Positions 6,175-16,016 of a DNA stretch of 64,000 bases are shown piece by piece. The DNA is taken from positions 32,001 to 96,000 of the forward strand of contig JBHLON010000002.1 in assembly GCA_048940445.1 (NCBI GenBank), read 5' to 3'. Source of the DNA: Promethearchaeota archaeon. Lineage in GTDB: Archaea; Asgardarchaeota; Lokiarchaeia; Sigyniarchaeales; SOKP01. Both the position numbers and the translations under genes were made by a program. Position 1 is the stretch's first letter. Every line of letters starts with the position of its first letter. The notes beneath the pieces are model-generated. The model searched no databases and was not told where the DNA came from. It was given only the letters and a program-made list of their open reading frames with translations.

Positions 6175-6429
6175 ATCTAATTCAATATATAAAAATAAAC
6201 GATTAACTAAATCTTTAAACGAAATATTTCTTGAGCAATTTATAGGAAGAACTGGTAAGTACGTTTTACTAATATAATTTATTTTTCATAACGTAAATTT
6301 ATTAATGTTTAACCTATGTAATAAACATTGCATAAGTGTTAATATCTTCCAACACTTTTGTGTGTAAGAATATATTAAGATTATATGTCAATTTCAATCA
6401 AATCTTCATTTTACAGATACCTAATAGCA

Positions 6430-6585
6430 ATGCAAAAAGTTAAGGGAAAAGGTTTGAATATCTGCAGTAAATGTGGTAACGTAATGGTCACAAGAGTCGT
6501 TAAAAGAGGCGTAAATCCTAAAAGAAAAGAATTAGAGAAGATACTTCAATGTATTGTGTGCAAACATTGGGAAGATATTGATTAA
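6430..6585 (+). CDS. Small zinc-ribbon protein
   Basis: CSKCG...CIVCKHW; likely start ATG 6430 (track start 6385). Confidence 0.7.
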   Translation: MQKVKGKGLNICSKCGNVMVTRVVKRGVNPKRKELEKILQCIVCKHWEDID

Positions 6586-6674: not shown

Positions 6675-6805
6675 ATAAAAAAAGAAAGTAGATGGGAACG
6701 ATCGTTTGAGCAAAAAACAAAATCAGGGAGAGAATTAAACTCAAGGAGTTTAATAGAGGGCGAAATCCAATGTTAGCTCAAATTATCGTATTAAATTCCC
6801 ATCCC
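6675..6805 (-). ncRNA. Candidate stand-alone structured small RNA (~120-130 nt)
   Basis: Nested complementary segments 6691-6698/6796-6803, 6698-6702/6785-6789 and 6705-6711/6776-6782, plus perfect 9-bp hairpin 6734-6742/6746-6754. Minus-strand TTTTTATA at 6834-6827 lies ~25 nt before the 5' stem, and a U-tract follows the 3' stem. Confidence 0.6.
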
Positions 6806-7409
6806 AATGAGTAATATAATTTTATCTATAAAAATTCATGTATTATAAATTATAGTAAACTTAATATTTTGAAAACAACCTAAAAATTATTTCTAATCCA
6901 CTACTAAAAGAAAATAAATATTTTTATTTAATCTTTTTTTAATGATTTTACACACAAAAATCTATTTAAATTATTTATAAATCATAACGTAAAACTTAAA
7001 CTAAAGAAATCTTCTTAACATTTTTTGTTTATATTTATAAATATCTAAGTTTAAATTTGGGATCAATTTAATTTTAATTTACAATCAAATCCCGATTTTT
7101 TTACCCCATTTTTAGACTGCTATTTAACTTTATATTGAGATCATGTACACATAATAATCCTAACTTTAGCACAATAAAAAATATTTAACGCCTCAACTTA
7201 TATTTCATACTATTACTCATATCTTTTTATTCACGGGAAAAAAGTAAGTTTTATATATTGAGTTAATCTTAATTTTTAATTACTAAAGAAGACTAAATGA
7301 TCAACATTTTAATTGTGATCAATACTTGACTTCTTGAGGAGATGTGATTTAGCATCGAAAAAACATCAATATAAAATCTAATCAAAATTAAAAAATTTGG
7401 AAATGGAAA

Positions 7410-9521
7410 ATGGAAAAAAAACGAATAGCTATATTATTGATAATTTGTATGTCTTTTAGCGCGATTCCGCTTGGACTCTTTGGTTTTGTTGTTGCAAAAC
7501 CTGCCGTTTCTTATCCCGATTATCAAGCAGTAGATTGGCAAAGTGGTCTAGCTGGGGATATAAATATGCCAGATATAGCTGATACAACTTTTAAAACGTC
7601 TATGGCACAACCTCATACTGCTGCTGCACCAGAGGTAGGTGATGTTGTATATGATTGGTATTTGTCAGCAATACAAGATAATCCTTACATGACACTTAGG
7701 GCAATTGTAGGAAATGCTGAAGTTTGGGTTGCCAACGACTTAAGTTATCCAGATGGAGACCCAAGAAATGCTGATATCTTTAATTTAAATATCACAGATG
7801 CGATGTGTGAATATTTAGCTGCTCAATTTAATGATGTGATCTATCCGGCAGATACTAATTATTTTGGAATGCCTGAAGATAGGGATGGTACAAATACCAT
7901 TTTTGAACAGATTGATGGAACTAGCTTTCCTCCATATACCTACGATTGGATAAATGCAACCGATAATCCACAACGTACGATTATAAAAGTATTTAATATT
8001 CAGGATGCGAATTACTATGATCCAACTTATCCTTATTTTGTAATTGGTTTCTTTAGTTCTGGATATGATAATTATTATAATCGAAATATGATTCATATTG
8101 ATTGTTGGCAATGGTGGAGACGAGTAGGTGATTTAGGTCAATCATGGTTTCCGGATTATCCTGATAAGGTTGTGGAAGAAGGTCATGCACATGATTATGA
8201 ATCAACAATAGCTCATGAATATCAACATTTAATTCATCATGATTGGAACCCAAATGATGATGCATTCATGAATGAAGGGTGCAGTATGTATGCTGAATTC
8301 GTAACTGGTTACGGGATCGCTGATAACTACTTCAACAGTTATTTTGCTACACCAGATAATTCATTGACAATATGGGGTGATCAAGGAGATATCAATATTC
8401 TCGCTGATTATGGTGTTGCAGCTTTATGGACGATGTACTTAAGTGACCATTACGGTGGTGCTGATATTATACGTGATTTTGTTCAAGCTGGAATACCTGG
8501 AATTGATGGAATTAATGCTGCTCTAGCTGATAGGGGGTATAAAAGATCAAATTTCTATACTGTATATCATGATTGGAGACTGGCGAATTTAATCCGCGCT
8601 AGTCATGGAAAATATGGTTATGATAACGTTGATTTTACCAATTTGGATCCAATACGTATATATGATGTATCTGGATTACCCGTACCATCAACTAGTGGAG
8701 CTCAAGGATTTGGAAGTACACATACTATACTAGATTATGATACTGGAGTCTCTATGCTTGGTCCTTTTGGAAGTGATTATATACAATTCAGTGATTGGAA
8801 CAAGCCAGGATGGTTCTACTTTAATGGAGATGATCAAGCTTATTTAGGATGGCAACCAATAGCTGATGGATTTTGGTCTGCTTTTGGGGATGAACAAGAC
8901 AAGTCACTTACCGGTGAGGCATTTGTAGATCCAGCTAACCCAACTCTTGAACTTATAACAAAATATAGTATCGAACCGTATTGGGATTTTGGCTTTATAC
9001 AAGCATTTAATGAAACTTCTGGTGAATGGGTGTCCCTCGCAAACGAATATACAACATACGATCATGATCCTTCTGCTTATCCTGCTATTGTAGCAGAACT
9101 TCCAGGTTTGACAGGACAAAGCCCTGGTTGGGCTTCAGATGAATGGACAACGATGGAATTTGACCTATCCTATTGGGCTGGTCAAACTGTACAACTTAAT
9201 TTTAGATATATGACAGACTGGTCTACAACTGCTGCTGGCTGGTATATTAATCAAGCAAGCGTAAGTGGTACTCCAGTAGCTTTGACTTATGAATCAGGTG
9301 CGGCTGATTTCATGGTAACTGTAGTGCAAGTTATTCATACACGTTGGTTTAACCTGTATCTCCCATGGGATTTAAAGCTTAATGATGCTACAAACACGGG
9401 GCTTTTCTTAGGAATAGCTCATAAGCATTTTGACTTCATAGTAGTAGTGAGTCCAACTATGCTAACTGGTTTTACAGATTATTCTTTTCAAGCACAAAAG
9501 TTAAAATGGCATTGTCATTAA
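7410..9521 (+). CDS. Secreted zinc metallopeptidase (M30/immune inhibitor A-like) with C-terminal InhA-type beta-sandwich, copy 1
   Basis: Signal peptide; AHEYQHLIH...NEGCS; C-terminal EPYWDFG...LSYWAGQTVQLNFRYMTD...GWYI. Confidence 0.8.
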   Translation: MEKKRIAILLIICMSFSAIPLGLFGFVVAKPAVSYPDYQAVDWQSGLAGDINMPDIADTTFKTSMAQPHTAAAPEVGDVVYDWYLSAIQDNPYMTLRAIVGNAEVWVANDLSYPDGDPRNADIFNLNITDAMCEYLAAQFNDVIYPADTNYFGMPEDRDGTNTIFEQIDGTSFPPYTYDWINATDNPQRTIIKVFNIQDANYYDPTYPYFVIGFFSSGYDNYYNRNMIHIDCWQWWRRVGDLGQSWFPDYPDKVVEEGHAHDYESTIAHEYQHLIHHDWNPNDDAFMNEGCSMYAEFVTGYGIADNYFNSYFATPDNSLTIWGDQGDINILADYGVAALWTMYLSDHYGGADIIRDFVQAGIPGIDGINAALADRGYKRSNFYTVYHDWRLANLIRASHGKYGYDNVDFTNLDPIRIYDVSGLPVPSTSGAQGFGSTHTILDYDTGVSMLGPFGSDYIQFSDWNKPGWFYFNGDDQAYLGWQPIADGFWSAFGDEQDKSLTGEAFVDPANPTLELITKYSIEPYWDFGFIQAFNETSGEWVSLANEYTTYDHDPSAYPAIVAELPGLTGQSPGWASDEWTTMEFDLSYWAGQTVQLNFRYMTDWSTTAAGWYINQASVSGTPVALTYESGAADFMVTVVQVIHTRWFNLYLPWDLKLNDATNTGLFLGIAHKHFDFIVVVSPTMLTGFTDYSFQAQKLKWHCH

Positions 9522-9559
9522 ACAATAAATTCAAATTTTTTTTTTATTTTATTATATTC

Positions 9560-9785
9560 GCTATTTTTAATACCTTTCTACATGACTTAATATAAAATTT
9601 TTACGACGAGACTGGAGAGTCTAGATTTGCTTCAAGATGTATAATAGTTAACCGGTTTAAAGTTAGCTAGACTTTCTTGAGAGAGGGAATTAATAAGTTT
9701 AAAACAAGAATATTTACTTCATTGAATTGCTCTGAAATCCCCATTATGAAGTAAGTTTCGCTTTAAAAATGAGATATATATTGGA
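9560..9785 (-). pseudogene. Degenerate copy of the 3' part of the MBL-fold hydrolase gene at 12279-13094
   Basis: 9691-9745 closely matches 12531-12584 at nucleotide level; minus-strand translation SEQFNEVNILVLNLL...IPSLKKV*...HLEANLDSPVSS mirrors SEQFNGVNILILNLL...IPYLNKIQ...HFGAYMDSYLSS, with stops, frameshifts and a deletion; boundaries approximate. Confidence 0.8.
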
Positions 9786-10079
9786 GATTATTATTAGAAG
9801 CTCTAATCTTTTTTTAATAAAATTCCAGAAGTTTTAAATTTAAGTTTTTATTTTTAGAATATTTAAAATGACTTTAGTTTATTCTTGACAATATTATAAA
9901 ACTTATAAGTTTTCGAATCTAATTCTCAAATACACAATTTAGCGAAAGTTCCTTGAAAATTCATTTAATTTCAAGAATTCTAATTTGTGTTCAAAATGAA
10001 GATTTAAAAATGAAAAAGAATGCATTTTTTGAATGCAAAGTGAAAAAATCTATAACAAATTAAAAAAAGAGATGGAAAA

Positions 10080-12215
10080 ATGAGAAAAAAATCATTTGTT
10101 TTGTTATTAGCAACATTCTTAACTTTAAATAGCGCTACTTTTGGATTTCTATTAATTCCAACCACAGCTAAAATTGTTAATGAATTACCAGAATATATTC
10201 CTGTGGATTGGGATAGTGGACTTGCAGGTGAAGTTAAAATGCCCGAACTAGACTTGGACTCTTTAGGAACAGCGGAAACTGGTTTAGGATCATCCGCTCT
10301 CCCTATAGGAACTACTGTATGGGATTGGTATATCGGATCAGTAACAGGTAATCCTTACATGACACTTAGAGCAACTTCTACGTATGCTGAAGTATGGGTT
10401 GCTGAAAGTCTTGAATTTCCAGCGGGGGATCCGAGAAATTCTGATCCGAGAAATTATTTGGTTACTGATGAAATGGCTCAATATTTAGCTGAACAATTTG
10501 ACTCGTTTATCTATGAGAATTGTGTTAACTATTTCGGTGCTCCTTTTGATAGAGATGGGAGTGATACACTTTTTGAGGCAGTTTGGCCTACACTTCCAGA
10601 GAGATGGGATTGGATAGCATCAGAAAATCCTCAAAGGGTCATATTGAAAGTTTTAAATATAAGGGATACTAACTACTATAATGCATCTTATCCATACTAT
10701 ACAATTGGCTTTTATAATGTGTTGTATACCGGTACCTATTATAATAGGAATATGATCCATATTGACTGCTGGCAGTGGTTTGATAATTTGGGTCCTGATG
10801 GATATAATTGGTATCCAGATACTGAGGTAACAGACGCTTATTCGATTGAATCAGCAACAGCTCATGAATTTCAACATAATATTCATAGAGATTGGCAACC
10901 TCACCCTGAAGCTTTTATGAATGAAGGTTGTTCTATGGCTGCTGAATTTCTATCTGGATATCCTTACCCATGGAGTTATGTACCTTATTTCTTAGCAACT
11001 CCAGATAACTCTCTCATTGAATGGGGTGATCAATCTGATAATAACATTTTAGCAGATTATGCTCATTCTTTGATGTGGTGTACATATTTAGCGGATCATT
11101 ATGGTCCAGAATTTTTAACCCAATATGTACAATCAGGCATAGCAGGTATAGAAGGTATTAATGCTGCTCTTGATTATTTGGGTTACACCGAATCTTTTGA
11201 TGATATATTCCACGATTGGAGAATTGCGAATTTAATACATTCAGACTATCCGGGAAAAGGCAGATATAACTATAAATCAATTGATTTAGGTGAGTTTTTA
11301 GCAGGCGATTTTACCTGGGAAATACCAAGAATTTATGAAGTAGGGGGAAGAACTGTACCTTGGACTTATGGTTCAGATTTTGGGAATACAGTTGTTTACA
11401 ATGGATTATTTGTACTAAATAATATTAATATTGGGTCTTATGGTACTGATTATATTTCTCTTACCGACTTAAGAGGGCTAAATCTGGTCTTATTTGATGG
11501 TGATAAGGGAGCTACTACTCCAGGATGGGAATATGGCGTTTTTGAATCATTTGAAGCATATGGTGAGGTATGGTATTCTCAGGCCCAAGATCTTATGAAT
11601 GCTTTAATCGCAACTGAAGTTTTTGTAGATCCCCTTGATCCTTACTTATACCTTACTACATATTGGGATATTGAAGATTACTGGGATTTCGGGTTTGTTC
11701 AAGTTTCAACTGATGGAGGAAATTGGGATTCAACTTGGACATCTTTAGAAAATGAGTATACTACCTACGATCATGACCCAAGTGCTATTAGTTGGGCAAT
11801 AGAAAATCTTCCAGGACTTACAGGGATAAGTGAGCCAGTTGTAGAAATGACTTTCGATCTCTCTGCGTATGCAGGAGAAACGATTCACCTTGGTTTCCGT
11901 TTTGTCACAGACTGGGGAACTTATTACGAAGGCTGGTATCTTCTAGAAGGAACAGTTGGAACTACTGATATTCTACCTACTCTTGAACATGTATATCCAA
12001 GTGTCAATTGGATGGTTAGTCTTGTTGAAAGAAAAACCCTCCCAAAAGGACGAGTAAGTTATAATGTTCATGATATGCATATGTGCGATAATTGGGGAAT
12101 AGACTTTACTTGTGTTAATCATCTAGAAGACATTATCCTAGTTATAAGCCCTATAATGGATATAGGTGTCGCAGACTACCATTTTAGAACATTTCATCCT
12201 TGGTGTAAGAAATAA
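10080..12215 (+). CDS. Secreted zinc metallopeptidase (M30/InhA-like), copy 2
   Basis: Signal peptide; AHEFQHNIH...NEGCS; collinear paralog of 7410-9521. Confidence 0.8.
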   Translation: MRKKSFVLLLATFLTLNSATFGFLLIPTTAKIVNELPEYIPVDWDSGLAGEVKMPELDLDSLGTAETGLGSSALPIGTTVWDWYIGSVTGNPYMTLRATSTYAEVWVAESLEFPAGDPRNSDPRNYLVTDEMAQYLAEQFDSFIYENCVNYFGAPFDRDGSDTLFEAVWPTLPERWDWIASENPQRVILKVLNIRDTNYYNASYPYYTIGFYNVLYTGTYYNRNMIHIDCWQWFDNLGPDGYNWYPDTEVTDAYSIESATAHEFQHNIHRDWQPHPEAFMNEGCSMAAEFLSGYPYPWSYVPYFLATPDNSLIEWGDQSDNNILADYAHSLMWCTYLADHYGPEFLTQYVQSGIAGIEGINAALDYLGYTESFDDIFHDWRIANLIHSDYPGKGRYNYKSIDLGEFLAGDFTWEIPRIYEVGGRTVPWTYGSDFGNTVVYNGLFVLNNINIGSYGTDYISLTDLRGLNLVLFDGDKGATTPGWEYGVFESFEAYGEVWYSQAQDLMNALIATEVFVDPLDPYLYLTTYWDIEDYWDFGFVQVSTDGGNWDSTWTSLENEYTTYDHDPSAISWAIENLPGLTGISEPVVEMTFDLSAYAGETIHLGFRFVTDWGTYYEGWYLLEGTVGTTDILPTLEHVYPSVNWMVSLVERKTLPKGRVSYNVHDMHMCDNWGIDFTCVNHLEDIILVISPIMDIGVADYHFRTFHPWCKK

Positions 12216-12278: not shown

Positions 12279-13094
12279 TCATGCTTTATGGATTAAAGTC
12301 GCTATTTTTAACTTTAGGCCATCTTCAGCAGCAACAATATTTTTGATTAATGTTTTATTTCTTAATTTCTCAATCTGGCTTGGAATAAAGTTTTTGGATG
12401 ATAAATACGAATCCATGTAAGCTCCAAAATGGGTAATGATTAATGCATCTAAATTTGGTTGTATTTTATTCAAATAAGGAATGACTTCATCAGTACATAA
12501 ATGTCGTCGGCAGGTAATTGAATCAGGTCTTAATAAGTTTAAAATAAGAATGTTTACTCCATTAAATTGTTCCGAAAAGCCATCAAATACCATTGTATCA
12601 CTTGTAAATGCTATAGAATAATCTTCTAGATTAAATCTAACGCCAAAACCCTCCATATCAGTAGAATGAACGACTTTTGTGGCTAAAATCTCTGCATCGT
12701 TATATACATACTTATCCCCAATCCTAAAAACTTCTACTTTTTTCAACATATTTATGTGATACTCAGAGATGAATTTCAAAACATCCTTAGTGGTGATTAA
12801 AATCCCCTTTTTGTAATAATGATAATGTTTATCATGTAAAATCTCCCTTGAACTTTCAATTAAAGCTGCTAAGTCATTATAATGATCGACATGGGCATGT
12901 GTTACAATAAATAAATCAGTCTTAGTTGGATCCTCTCCAAATTGATTAATTCGTACAATGGCACCAGGACCAGGATCTATGTGTGCTTGAGATCCATTAA
13001 ACTTATATAAAATTCCTCCTGTAGCTCTGTATTGAGTTCTGATATGGTGTCTCCCTCCACCAGATCCAAGAAAAACTATTTCATCATCCATCAT
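12279..13094 (-). CDS. MBL-fold metallo-hydrolase (PhnP/RNase Z-like)
   Basis: VFLGSGGG, IDPGPG, THAHVDH, TSDT, ITHF; ATG start at 13094 or 13091. Confidence 0.85.
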   Translation of the reverse strand: MMDDEIVFLGSGGGRHHIRTQYRATGGILYKFNGSQAHIDPGPGAIVRINQFGEDPTKTDLFIVTHAHVDHYNDLAALIESSREILHDKHYHYYKKGILITTKDVLKFISEYHINMLKKVEVFRIGDKYVYNDAEILATKVVHSTDMEGFGVRFNLEDYSIAFTSDTMVFDGFSEQFNGVNILILNLLRPDSITCRRHLCTDEVIPYLNKIQPNLDALIITHFGAYMDSYLSSKNFIPSQIEKLRNKTLIKNIVAAEDGLKLKIATLIHKA

Positions 13095-13143
13095 ATTTAG
13101 AATTAGAATCAAACTTGTTATGAGAATAAATTATTCATTTAAT

Positions 13144-13668
13144 CTAATATTTTCTTTTTCTCATTAATTCTTTTGCGATTGATTCAAACACGAAATTAAC
13201 ATTATGACCTGTTTTTGAAGAGGTTTTGATAAAATCTAACATATTAAAAGTATTTTTAATATCTAAAGCAGTATCATCATCCATACTAATAGCATCTTTA
13301 AGGTCCAATTTTGTTCCAACGAGCATGATAGGAAGATCTATATCATGTAATCTGATTAAATTAACCCAGTTTAGTATATTACTCATTTGAGGCATTTTGG
13401 TAAGATCTGTTAGAAGGAGAGCGCCTCTTGCACCCATAACGAAATTACCAAGTAAATGTCTAAATCTCTCTTGACCACCTAAATCCCATAACTGTAATGA
13501 ACAATTTCCAGTATCTAGGGAAATTTCCTTAAGAAAAAAGTCGACACCAATTGTAGCTATTGTGGATTCATCAAAAATTCCGTCTACATATCTCCTCAAT
13601 AAAGTTGTCTTACCAACTCCGCCATCTCCTGCTACAAGCAATTTAAATACAAAATTTCTCAGTGTCAT
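13144..13668 (-). CDS. Rab-like small GTPase
   Basis: GDGGVGKT, TIGVDF, WDLGGQERF, GTKLD, TSSKTG; no C-terminal prenylation Cys. Confidence 0.9.
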   Translation of the reverse strand: MTLRNFVFKLLVAGDGGVGKTTLLRRYVDGIFDESTIATIGVDFFLKEISLDTGNCSLQLWDLGGQERFRHLLGNFVMGARGALLLTDLTKMPQMSNILNWVNLIRLHDIDLPIMLVGTKLDLKDAISMDDDTALDIKNTFNMLDFIKTSSKTGHNVNFVFESIAKELMRKRKY

Positions 13669-13763
13669 TTTACAATAACAATTTTGGGATGCAATAAAAT
13701 GTATTTAATATATTACAAAAAAATTAACAATTTTATATTTTAATATAATATTTGCTACTTATT

Positions 13764-16016
13764 TTAAGATTGGAATTCCTTGATCACAAAATTATCAATT
13801 TTAGTGAGGATAGGTTTCAATTCTTTCTCAATGATCTTTTGTAATTTTATTTTTGAAGGAATTTGATGTGTAGTTTTAATTATATTGTTAAAAGTGCTCT
13901 CAGCAATAAGTTGGCCCTTCTTACCTAAATTCGCGATGATATTATGATTCTTATCATTTATATTAAACTTTTTTATAGGACATTCAAACGGAATTTTAAA
14001 TATATGCCTTGTACTCTTTTTAATTCTAACTTGGTTGTTGATTAAAGGTGAATTCAGAATAGCTGTTAAATAATAAGCTTCCTCAAGAGATTTTGCATCA
14101 TAGAAACTCAAATCTCCAGTAATTATATAGTCTCCTTGAATAATTGCTGAATTTAGAACGGATCCAGAATTATTATATACAACTTTTATTTTAGCTTTTT
14201 GGCGGCTATTGATCAATTTGGACCAACGATTCAGATTATCCATTAATGAATTATTATTTGTTGTTTCTTTTTTATAATTCAAATAAATTTGATTGATCTT
14301 ATCATAAAAAGCTTTAGAATTTTCACTTAACCTATCATAATTGAAGCTTAGATCCTTCTTTGATAGTGGTAAGAAAACATAATAAAAATTATATACTAAA
14401 AATCTAACTAATTCCGTGCTTTTTACAACTTTAAAAATATTATCATTCTCAATTACCTCATCCTTAAATTCAAAATCATTCCAAGGTGATTTTGCTCTTT
14501 TAAAGATATTTGGGTCTGGATTAATTTTAACTAAGGAATCATTAAGTTTTTCACATTGGACAAAGATCAGATTCCGAGGATTTAAATCTGCTCCTTTATG
14601 AAATAACTTTTTATAATCACTGGGCTTAAAAGGCAATAAATTTCGAAATTCCCCTTTAGATACTAATTTTTGAACATAAGTTTTATTTCCTTTTCTTTCG
14701 ATATGATAAGGTATAAAGTTCTCCACATTTTTAAATCTTAATTTAAAGTCTTGAAAATAGGTAATATTGGCATTTCTTTTTATACCAAAATAGTAAACAG
14801 GAATCTCAAGTGGTTCATTCACTGCCTCAGAATTCGAATTTTCAGCATATAAGCAAATAAAATCAATATTGAATATTTTTTCAATTTTTGAGTCGAACTT
14901 CCAAATTTCTAAATTTTTAAATCCATAGAAGTTACGAAAACGCGATGCATGAGACCCATTAATGATTCCTTTAGTTATTACAAAAAAGATTTTGGCATTT
15001 TTCTTCATATAACTTTTGGCTTTATAGAAAAATAATGATGAAATTTCAATGTTTAAAACATTCTTTGGACTCGGCTTGATATTTAACTTTTCTGCTAAAT
15101 CTTTTATCTTATTCTGATATATAATTGATCCTATATCTCTTAAAGTGTACCAAGGTGGATTACCAATTACCAAATCAAATCTTTCTCCAGAATTGGAATC
15201 TTTTTCTAAAAACAACGAATCCTTTACAAATAAATTTAATTTAATTATTGATATCTTGATTCGCAATAACAAGAAAAAATTAAGTTTTGCTATAAATATA
15301 GAAATGGGGTTAATATCATACCCATATAATCTACTTATTGCCAAATTTTTTTCATTTTCTGTTTTATTTGAATATAGGATACTTTTTAAGATCTCTATTA
15401 AGAAGTTAGCAGTACCGCAACTTGGATCAAGTACAAAATCTCCGAATCGATATGTAGAGTCAACCATCTTTTTTGTTAAAAACATTGGAGTATAATATTC
15501 TCCTGATTTATGCCTTATGAGACCTGAAATAAACTTTTGGATAATAACATTAAAAAAATATTCTTGTGGTATCTTCAATGAAAATAAATCTCTTTCGATA
15601 AAAGTTAAAAAATCTTCGTAAGTAACATTGGTTAATTCTTCTAAAATTTCAAAAAAAGGAATAAAGTAATCATCTGAAAGAAAAATATCTTTCTGATATT
15701 CGGTTTTAATTTTTTTTCTTACCACTTCAAACTTTTCTATTGTAAATTTCTCAAGATGAGCGAAACTCTTTTCACTTAATATAAACTTTAAAATAAAAAA
15801 ATAACCAATGCAATATATTAAACCCAGTAAAAGATATAAACGTAAATTTGTAGATTCTTTCCCATATATTTGTGTGAAACATTTTTGCCATTTAATATAT
15901 TCTCCTGTATTTCGAATATTTTTGAATTCTGATATTTCTTCAAGCTCCTTTAATAATTTTCTGATATATTTAAGGTGGGAATCCAAATTATTATCAAAAC
16001 TTGAAATGTTAACCAT
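13764..16016 (-). CDS. N6-adenine DNA methyltransferase with C-terminal target-recognition region; no obvious nuclease domain
   Basis: GEYYTP, VLDPSCGTANF (motif I), VIGNPPW (motif IV). Confidence 0.85.
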   Translation of the reverse strand: MVNISSFDNNLDSHLKYIRKLLKELEEISEFKNIRNTGEYIKWQKCFTQIYGKESTNLRLYLLLGLIYCIGYFFILKFILSEKSFAHLEKFTIEKFEVVRKKIKTEYQKDIFLSDDYFIPFFEILEELTNVTYEDFLTFIERDLFSLKIPQEYFFNVIIQKFISGLIRHKSGEYYTPMFLTKKMVDSTYRFGDFVLDPSCGTANFLIEILKSILYSNKTENEKNLAISRLYGYDINPISIFIAKLNFFLLLRIKISIIKLNLFVKDSLFLEKDSNSGERFDLVIGNPPWYTLRDIGSIIYQNKIKDLAEKLNIKPSPKNVLNIEISSLFFYKAKSYMKKNAKIFFVITKGIINGSHASRFRNFYGFKNLEIWKFDSKIEKIFNIDFICLYAENSNSEAVNEPLEIPVYYFGIKRNANITYFQDFKLRFKNVENFIPYHIERKGNKTYVQKLVSKGEFRNLLPFKPSDYKKLFHKGADLNPRNLIFVQCEKLNDSLVKINPDPNIFKRAKSPWNDFEFKDEVIENDNIFKVVKSTELVRFLVYNFYYVFLPLSKKDLSFNYDRLSENSKAFYDKINQIYLNYKKETTNNNSLMDNLNRWSKLINSRQKAKIKVVYNNSGSVLNSAIIQGDYIITGDLSFYDAKSLEEAYYLTAILNSPLINNQVRIKKSTRHIFKIPFECPIKKFNINDKNHNIIANLGKKGQLIAESTFNNIIKTTHQIPSKIKLQKIIEKELKPILTKIDNFVIKEFQS

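Follow-up and report, generated by a model that had tools for sequence, protein, structure and literature searches.

Several C/U-rich small RNAs are known to act at ribosome-binding sites. LhrC1-5 of Listeria monocytogenes (PMC4132741) and RsaE of Staphylococcus and Bacillus (PMC2790875) are C/U-rich sRNAs that block Shine-Dalgarno (SD) sequences. In archaea, the trans-acting sRNA162 of Methanosarcina mazei uses a single-stranded region to mask a ribosome-binding site; its linker varies more than any other part, and homologs were found in no genus other than Methanosarcina (PMC3510493). Archaeal splicing endonuclease (EndA) substrates include tRNA, rRNA and mRNA (PMC6379350), the 5' UTR of Haloferax HVO_1309 (PMC7714728) and the ends of the permuted SRP RNA of Thermoproteus (PMC4731332). 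Our literature search found no report of internal introns inside a stand-alone sRNA, and nothing on the RNA described here, including by literal search for its core. Small RNAs of Asgard archaea have hardly been catalogued at all.

The RNA at the present locus resembles LhrC1-5 and RsaE in its small size, its conserved unpaired C/U-rich candidate seed of anti-SD character and its low-GC host, and LhrC is also multicopy. In contrast to these sRNAs, with which it has no sequence homology, it is archaeal and has candidate targets only, its ends form one rod, it carries a single invariant 16-nt core that includes CAU, and its relatives contain introns. It is not homologous to sRNA162 either, and differs from it in that the loop strand is the most conserved part and the RNA is multicopy and intron-bearing. 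By analogy, the small RNA may work like LhrC, RsaE or sRNA162.

The window, meaning the whole stretch of 64,000 nucleotides that was analysed, comes from an AT-rich Loki-type Asgard archaeon, and records of its relatives are titled Promethearchaeota or Promethearchaeia. The element is flanked on one side by a convergent 66-aa zinc-ribbon ORF (6385-6585) and on the other by a divergent gene for a secreted peptidase-like protein, which starts at 7410. Neither lies on the strand of the element, so it cannot be a UTR of either. Its parts, together with one neighbouring gene, are as follows.

6834-6827 (-): TATA-like box, TTTTTATA, ~23-30 nt upstream of the first helix, recognized by sequence
6690-6805 (-): predicted small RNA of ~115 nt, from folding, the covariance model and family conservation, with a putative 5' end
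6797-6804 (-): purine-rich 5' arm of P1, pairing with 6697-6690
6776-6789 (-): 5' arms of P2, pairing with 6711-6698 (ACGAU, 6789-6785, with 6702-6698; UUUGAGC, 6782-6776, with 6711-6705)
6756-6771 (-): near-invariant 16-nt core, AUUGGAUUUCGCCCUC, with AC directly before it, giving CAU
6764-6765 (-): intron site 1, empty in the window copy, with 22 distinct inserts in relatives; central helix UUGG/CCAA
6761-6762 (-): intron site 2, empty in the window copy, with 13 distinct inserts in relatives; central helix GAUU with GAUU, AAUU or GGUU
6734-6754 (-): P3, a perfect 9-bp hairpin (arms 6754-6746/6742-6734)
6712-6733 (-): variable, pyrimidine-rich (C/U-rich) 3' loop strand, with a run of 7 or more pyrimidines in 156 of 178 members
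6677-6688 (-): U-rich tail resembling archaeal terminators, with one A after the stem and one C inside
12279-13112 (-): RNase Z-like metallo-beta-lactamase gene (Lactamase_B_2, weak RNase Z profile), the usual syntenic neighbour of the window paralog

A preliminary description had proposed a stand-alone structured small RNA gene of ~120 nt on the minus strand. The paired ends, 9-bp hairpin, C/U-rich loop, TATA box and U-tract that it listed are all present on that strand as placed, and the gene itself, with its own promoter and U-tail, is supported. The span first proposed folds at -34.3 kcal/mol (z -4.46) and the span 6684-6806 has a z of -5.25, with 0 of 200 shuffles as good in either case. 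The plus strand also folds (z -4.61), leaving the strand unfixed by single-sequence folding. We assigned the minus strand because G-U cells exceed A-C cells in the covarying helices (49 vs 7) and because the intron motif, a bulge-helix-bulge (BHB), exists on this strand only.

The conservation and covariation check suggested in that description recovered a family with covarying helices. For P2 and P3 together, 92.6% of cells are paired vs 83.3% when shuffled, and compensatory changes occur in 12 of 16 aligned pairs (7/8 in P2 and 5/8 in P3, where 98.6% of cells are paired), with every slid control far lower. Similarly, in an alignment-free test over 92 clusters, the 5' and 3' arms of the same RNA pair at -23.8 kcal/mol vs -14.8 kcal/mol for swapped arms. 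Stem sequences vary freely among members, and conservation lies in the loop rather than the stem; the sequence of P3 is wholly replaced in divergent genera while AUUGGAUUUCGCCCUC persists. A TATA-like motif is found at -35..-19 in 93 of 117 members vs 23 of 117 in the adjacent control window, a C+G minimum lies at -31..-25, and U-rich tails recur across the family. The alignments demonstrate an element with its own predicted TATA promoter and U-tail, in which a covarying rod of P1 and P2 encloses a large loop and the core lies 5' of P3.

BLAST returned full-length matches in >20 genomes of the genus, with second loci in many of them. GTDB contigs contain at least 115 occurrences of the exact 21-nt core, and the 80 records listed are all titled Asgard or uncultured archaea. 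The covariance model, which scores the window copy at 108.6 bits with that copy included in the model, found matches in 24 of 25 genomes of the host family (1-7 per genome) and two weak matches only elsewhere in the phylum. A 13-nt core pattern is present in 102 of 134 family genomes, in all 13 genera, and many family genomes without it carry an intron-split core instead. One clear homolog lies outside the host family, in neighbouring family f3 (L370). Families f2 and f4-f7 (25 genomes, complete ones included) gave no homolog by the model or by a core search allowing 2 mismatches, a search that could miss intron-split or diverged forms, and viral contigs held no copies.

We collected 178 distinct members, which fall into 92 clusters less than 80% identical to one another; among them is a short subfamily of ~95 nt in which P3 is absent and the core retained. 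The host genome has three copies: that of the window, one at C58:2072-2194 and a degenerate one at C47:96274-96388. The core occurs only within the RNA genes, where it belongs to no covarying helix and is single-stranded; its columns are invariant in the alignments and are kept in the most divergent members, family f3 included. An unchanged 16-base loop across 13 genera and many paralogs implies a partner for the core. We are nearly certain that this conserved non-coding RNA is real.

Three core-like sequences were seen farther afield. L204 (G162:C43:14275-14408), from another Asgard class, is a weak model match (E 0.013) with a core-like stretch and could have arisen by chance. L444 (G057:C165:353 and 627), from a family f6 genome, is a non-coding, repeated segment of ~50 nt with another fold that carries a core-like 16-mer twice, 274 nt apart. 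In family f17 genomes, L383, L384 and L389 share a conserved GC-rich non-coding segment with a core-like 13-mer, which is possibly an unrelated structured RNA.

By eye, the preliminary description had seen no resemblance to tRNA, 5S, SRP or C/D RNA. Rfam returned nothing at the gathering threshold and, at E<10, only chance matches outside the element; ARAGORN found no tRNA in it, and it has no cloverleaf. Y and vault RNAs are ~110 nt long, with paired ends, a large pyrimidine-rich loop with an inner hairpin, a U-tail and paralog clusters. The likeness to them suggested at the outset proved to be one of outline only. Here the loop rather than the stem is conserved, there is no conserved Ro-binding bulged helix and no match to an Rfam Y model, and PF05731 (Ro60/TROVE) was found in 0 of 161 class genomes by a search whose controls were positive in Deinococcus and Bacteroides. 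Likewise, there is no match to the vault RNA model and there are no A/B boxes. An Sm-class snRNA was rejected for want of a conserved single-stranded RAU4-6GR site between stems, and a looser Sm-like RAUUUU[UG] occurs in 53 of 178 members. The U-rich tract first put forward for Sm/Lsm binding, GAUUUUGUUUUUUG, is private to the lineage (3/178), whereas a long pyrimidine run is general and the genome holds three Lsm genes; the 3' loop strand is a possible site for Lsm or another protein. We also rejected a template RNA of a retron, telomerase or DRT, because the host genome, 93% complete, gave no RVT_1 match and the core is not repeated in DNA. A triplex clamp formed from mirror pyrimidine tracts was rejected too, since the 3' tract is too variable for it.

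Gapped searches uncovered inserts of 29-41 nt within the core, at two positions 3 nt apart that correspond to window 6765/6764 and 6762/6761. All 35 distinct inserts examined form a BHB with a 4/4 central helix and both 3-nt bulges in the exact register of the splicing endonuclease, while other 4-mers of the same introns pair at 6.4%. The helix at site 2 relies on G-U pairs and cannot form on the opposite strand. As flanking helices, the exon side has one base pair (the HBh' form) and the intron side has at least 2 bp directly at the junction in 29 of 35, the remainder beginning with a mismatch. Neither site lies in a 5-bp anticodon-like stem. Heteromeric splicing endonucleases accept relaxed motifs (PMC6379350), which the two EndA genes of the host genome fit. 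These inserts share with archaeal BHB introns the 4-bp central helix, the two 3-nt bulges with the cut after the second bulge base, and the form of short hairpin introns that are repeatedly gained or lost. In contrast, their host is a stand-alone small RNA rather than a tRNA, rRNA or mRNA, their exon-side helix is just 1 bp, and they are internal instead of forming a terminal circularising motif. A terminal BHB that circularises the whole RNA was rejected, as the lower stem of the window copy, which is itself intronless, has the wrong geometry.

In a tree of exon-joined RNAs, rough because the sequences are short, several supported clades place intron-bearing copies beside intron-free sisters, and this holds at both paralog loci. 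Introns have therefore been gained or lost repeatedly, as reported for Asgard tRNAs (bioRxiv 10.64898/2026.10.13.758758). A search for intron sources gave no match above chance, and a 16-nt insert at L290 was discarded as a chance match outside the RNA context.

Since the core accepts insertions only if they are removed at the RNA level, we infer that the element is transcribed, acts as RNA and needs an intact core. The small RNA is very probably transcribed as a ~115-nt species, and it is just as probable that the intron-bearing copies are spliced by EndA, the tRNA splicing endonuclease, and a ligase would then restore the exact core. The family would extend the known host range of tRNA-type introns to small RNAs that stand alone. 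With two sites 3 nt apart and both intron-bearing and intron-free sisters, it offers a clean system for studying how BHB introns arrive. Furthermore, in vitro work with EndA on the intron-bearing copies would give a direct test of transcription, strand and function.

The core is a candidate anti-SD and anti-AUG seed, and the reading that we tentatively favor, short of even odds, is a free-standing, multicopy, trans-acting sRNA directed against the ribosome-binding sites of multiple targets. The core would serve as the base-pairing seed, in which the 3' part UCGCCCUC would pair with SD sequences and the CAU would cover the start codon. Such pairing would block 30S loading on many mRNAs at once, like the C/U-rich sRNAs of low-GC bacteria, and a role with many targets would explain both the invariance of the core and the redundant copies. 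The complement of the core consists of an SD-like GAGGGCGA octamer, a 6-nt spacer and AUG, a spacing that equals the modal SD-AUG spacing of the host genome. This genome uses SD motifs, and within GUGA the UGA is most frequent at -9 to -7, in register with the core.

The signal at start regions is modest, and it emerged after we had pursued other hypotheses. In-register pairing with the CAU on the start codon occurs in 28 genes vs a mean of 6 for CAU-keeping shuffles (0/300). The fairest control was full shuffling with any register allowed; it gave p of 0.02-0.04 in the host genome and 0.045 for 932 genes from five other family genomes, and no significance in genomes that lack the RNA, for which the sample was smaller (436 genes). 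Internal Met codons yield half or more of the signal (29/2715 vs 53/2924; 11/873 vs 17/932), register-free duplex energies of the core with start regions are no better than for shuffles, and a search for a conserved specific mRNA target found none. Most core variants are C-to-U changes, which keep pairing to G; the same change is also the most frequent one in genomes rich in AT. Pairing with SD sequences, proposed in the preliminary description, thus gains modest support through the invariant 5' loop strand (6771-6756), but the CUCUCCC tract named there is present in only 88 of 178 members.

Two narrower target sets did not hold up. Secreted-protein leaders gave a strong pattern in the host genome (14/83 vs 48/2843), and among 7-mers upstream of large signal-peptide genes GGCGAAA ranked first (p 9e-7); the genes concerned include Loki-CTERM surface proteins and are partly paralogous. 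This pattern was not replicated elsewhere, with 0/41 in random pieces of five other family genomes and 0/23 and 2/37 in homologs, and we retain it as no more than a lead. TFB ribosome-binding sites were discarded, as 0 of 8 TFB-like genes pair at the start and the best duplexes (-20 kcal/mol) fall in coding motifs.

On contigs C27, C32, C35, C44, C47, C104 and C110 of the host genome (L569-L578), GGCGARR lies within 20 nt before the start of 11 genes, and 8 of the 11 encode signal-peptide proteins (subtilase, C1 peptidase, SBBP propellers, beta-helix and Loki-CTERM). This motif mismatches the 16S anti-SD, matches the RNA core and was not seen in samples of other genomes; it may be a shared leader module. 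The host genome has at least eight TFB-like genes (C20, C55, C46, C3, C21, C139, C94 and C58), in two of which the complements to the core lie inside the conserved motifs EWRAF and RGE.

A broader proposal, which we consider improbable, is an RNP RNA of a new archaeal class that would read mRNA starts by SD and AUG pairing as a general translation gate or initiation adaptor, and that could be switched by tRNA-type splicing of its seed. If true, control of translation would be linked to the machinery of tRNA splicing in close relatives of eukaryotes.

The invariant GGA of the core faces A/U-rich spacer positions and is thus left unexplained by generic start-site pairing; by folding prediction, the GG is mostly paired inside the RNA in variable registers. 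This GGA matches the 16S rRNA 3' end, which keeps alive a model in which the RNA is a protein-binding scaffold or decoy (Y, 6S or CsrB-like), although we regard it as rather unlikely. The rod would display the core for recognition by a sequence-specific protein, such as a factor reading the 3' end of 16S rRNA (UGGAUCACCUCCU, which the core resembles), and copy number would set titration. Consistent with this model are the invariant UGGAU, which mRNA pairing does not explain and which matches the 16S 3' end, as well as the end-paired rod with its large loop and U-tail, the Lsm genes, and a 71-aa protein that is the persistently convergent neighbour of the second paralog. However, Ro60 is missing from the class genomes searched, the sequence of the 3' U-tract is not conserved, and no gene is common to the flanks of all paralogs. 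The 71-aa protein is beta-rich (L002:1866-2078 (-), G000:C58), holds its position in several genera and has 23 homologs; it could be assigned neither to a Pfam family nor, at a best Z of 4.0, to a known fold.

A ribosome-associated guide or chaperone (snR30/U14-like) or a hibernation RNA, in which the core would pair with helix 22/23 of 16S rRNA, is improbable. The core and this helix share a 9-nt exact complement, UAGAGGGCG, extendable to -20.5 kcal/mol, and the 16S site is invariant in all family 16S genes examined. Additionally, both main paralog loci adjoin RNase Z-like or RNase J-like nuclease genes, and abundant stable RNAs typically gain introns, as is established for tRNA and rRNA. On the other hand, the best 16S and 23S duplexes are no better than shuffles (3/20 and 2/20 as good), on which ground an rRNA guide was set aside. 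C/D and H/ACA guides were rejected on these duplexes and on the lack of conserved boxes in the alignments, where no C/D boxes, K-turn or ACA tail were found. Moreover, the 16S site is nearly identical in family f2, where the RNA was not found, and in several members the 9-nt match is broken at its 3' end. The 16S-like matches at L257 and L265, in two family genomes, differ from all others at helix 22/23, and L265 adjoins a bacterial-type tRNA-Ile-like sequence; these divergent 16S sequences are probably bin contamination.

Less probable still is a nuclease guide (U7/CPSF73-like), in which an Lsm ring on the U-rich strand would bring a beta-CASP or RNase Z-like enzyme to purine-rich RNA ends. 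The second paralog, near the gene of the 71-aa protein, lies ~300 nt upstream of an RNase J-like beta-CASP gene at 18 or more loci. The window paralog usually lies just 3' of the RNase Z-like gene, which adjoins ~40 related RNA copies and is itself behind a Rab-like GTPase gene (window 12279-13668); in the window, two secreted peptidase-like genes (7410-12215) separate it from the RNA. Against a partnership, many copies have neither nuclease as a neighbour, orientation flips relative to the RNase Z-like gene, and there is no conserved Sm-type site. The other RNA copies have unrelated neighbours, which argues that nuclease adjacency is inherited synteny.

Several neighbouring genes are of note in their own right. 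The genes at 7410-9521 and 10080-12215 (+) are paralogous and encode secreted immune-inhibitor-A-like peptidases. A conserved cluster at 12279-16016 (-), comprising N6-adenine methyltransferase-like, Rab-like GTPase and RNase Z-like genes, adjoins the RNA across genera. The zinc-ribbon ORF (6385-6585 (+); CxxC...CxxC) is ~52 aa in relatives, is convergent with the RNA in ~17 loci and has a weak Zn_ribbon_RPB9 match. At several second-paralog loci, the adjoining gene encodes a methyltransferase fused to an HgcA-like corrinoid domain (L069:1990-3642 (-)).

Finally, a non-RNA element (a MITE, terminator, UTR element or DNA cruciform) is highly improbable: genomes do hold several copies, some in tandem ~300 nt apart, but the G-U pairs are strand-specific, the TATA motif is conserved, the inserts are removable only by RNA splicing, ~600 nt of intergenic DNA extends upstream to the divergent gene, and a MITE, the refuting case raised at the outset, is rejected by just three, divergent, copies in the host genome and by synteny that is stable across genera. 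Within this upstream DNA, 5' of the TATA box, the window paralog carries across the genus a second conserved block (TATAATACA-like, 6836-6850 (-)), a possible BRE or regulator site.
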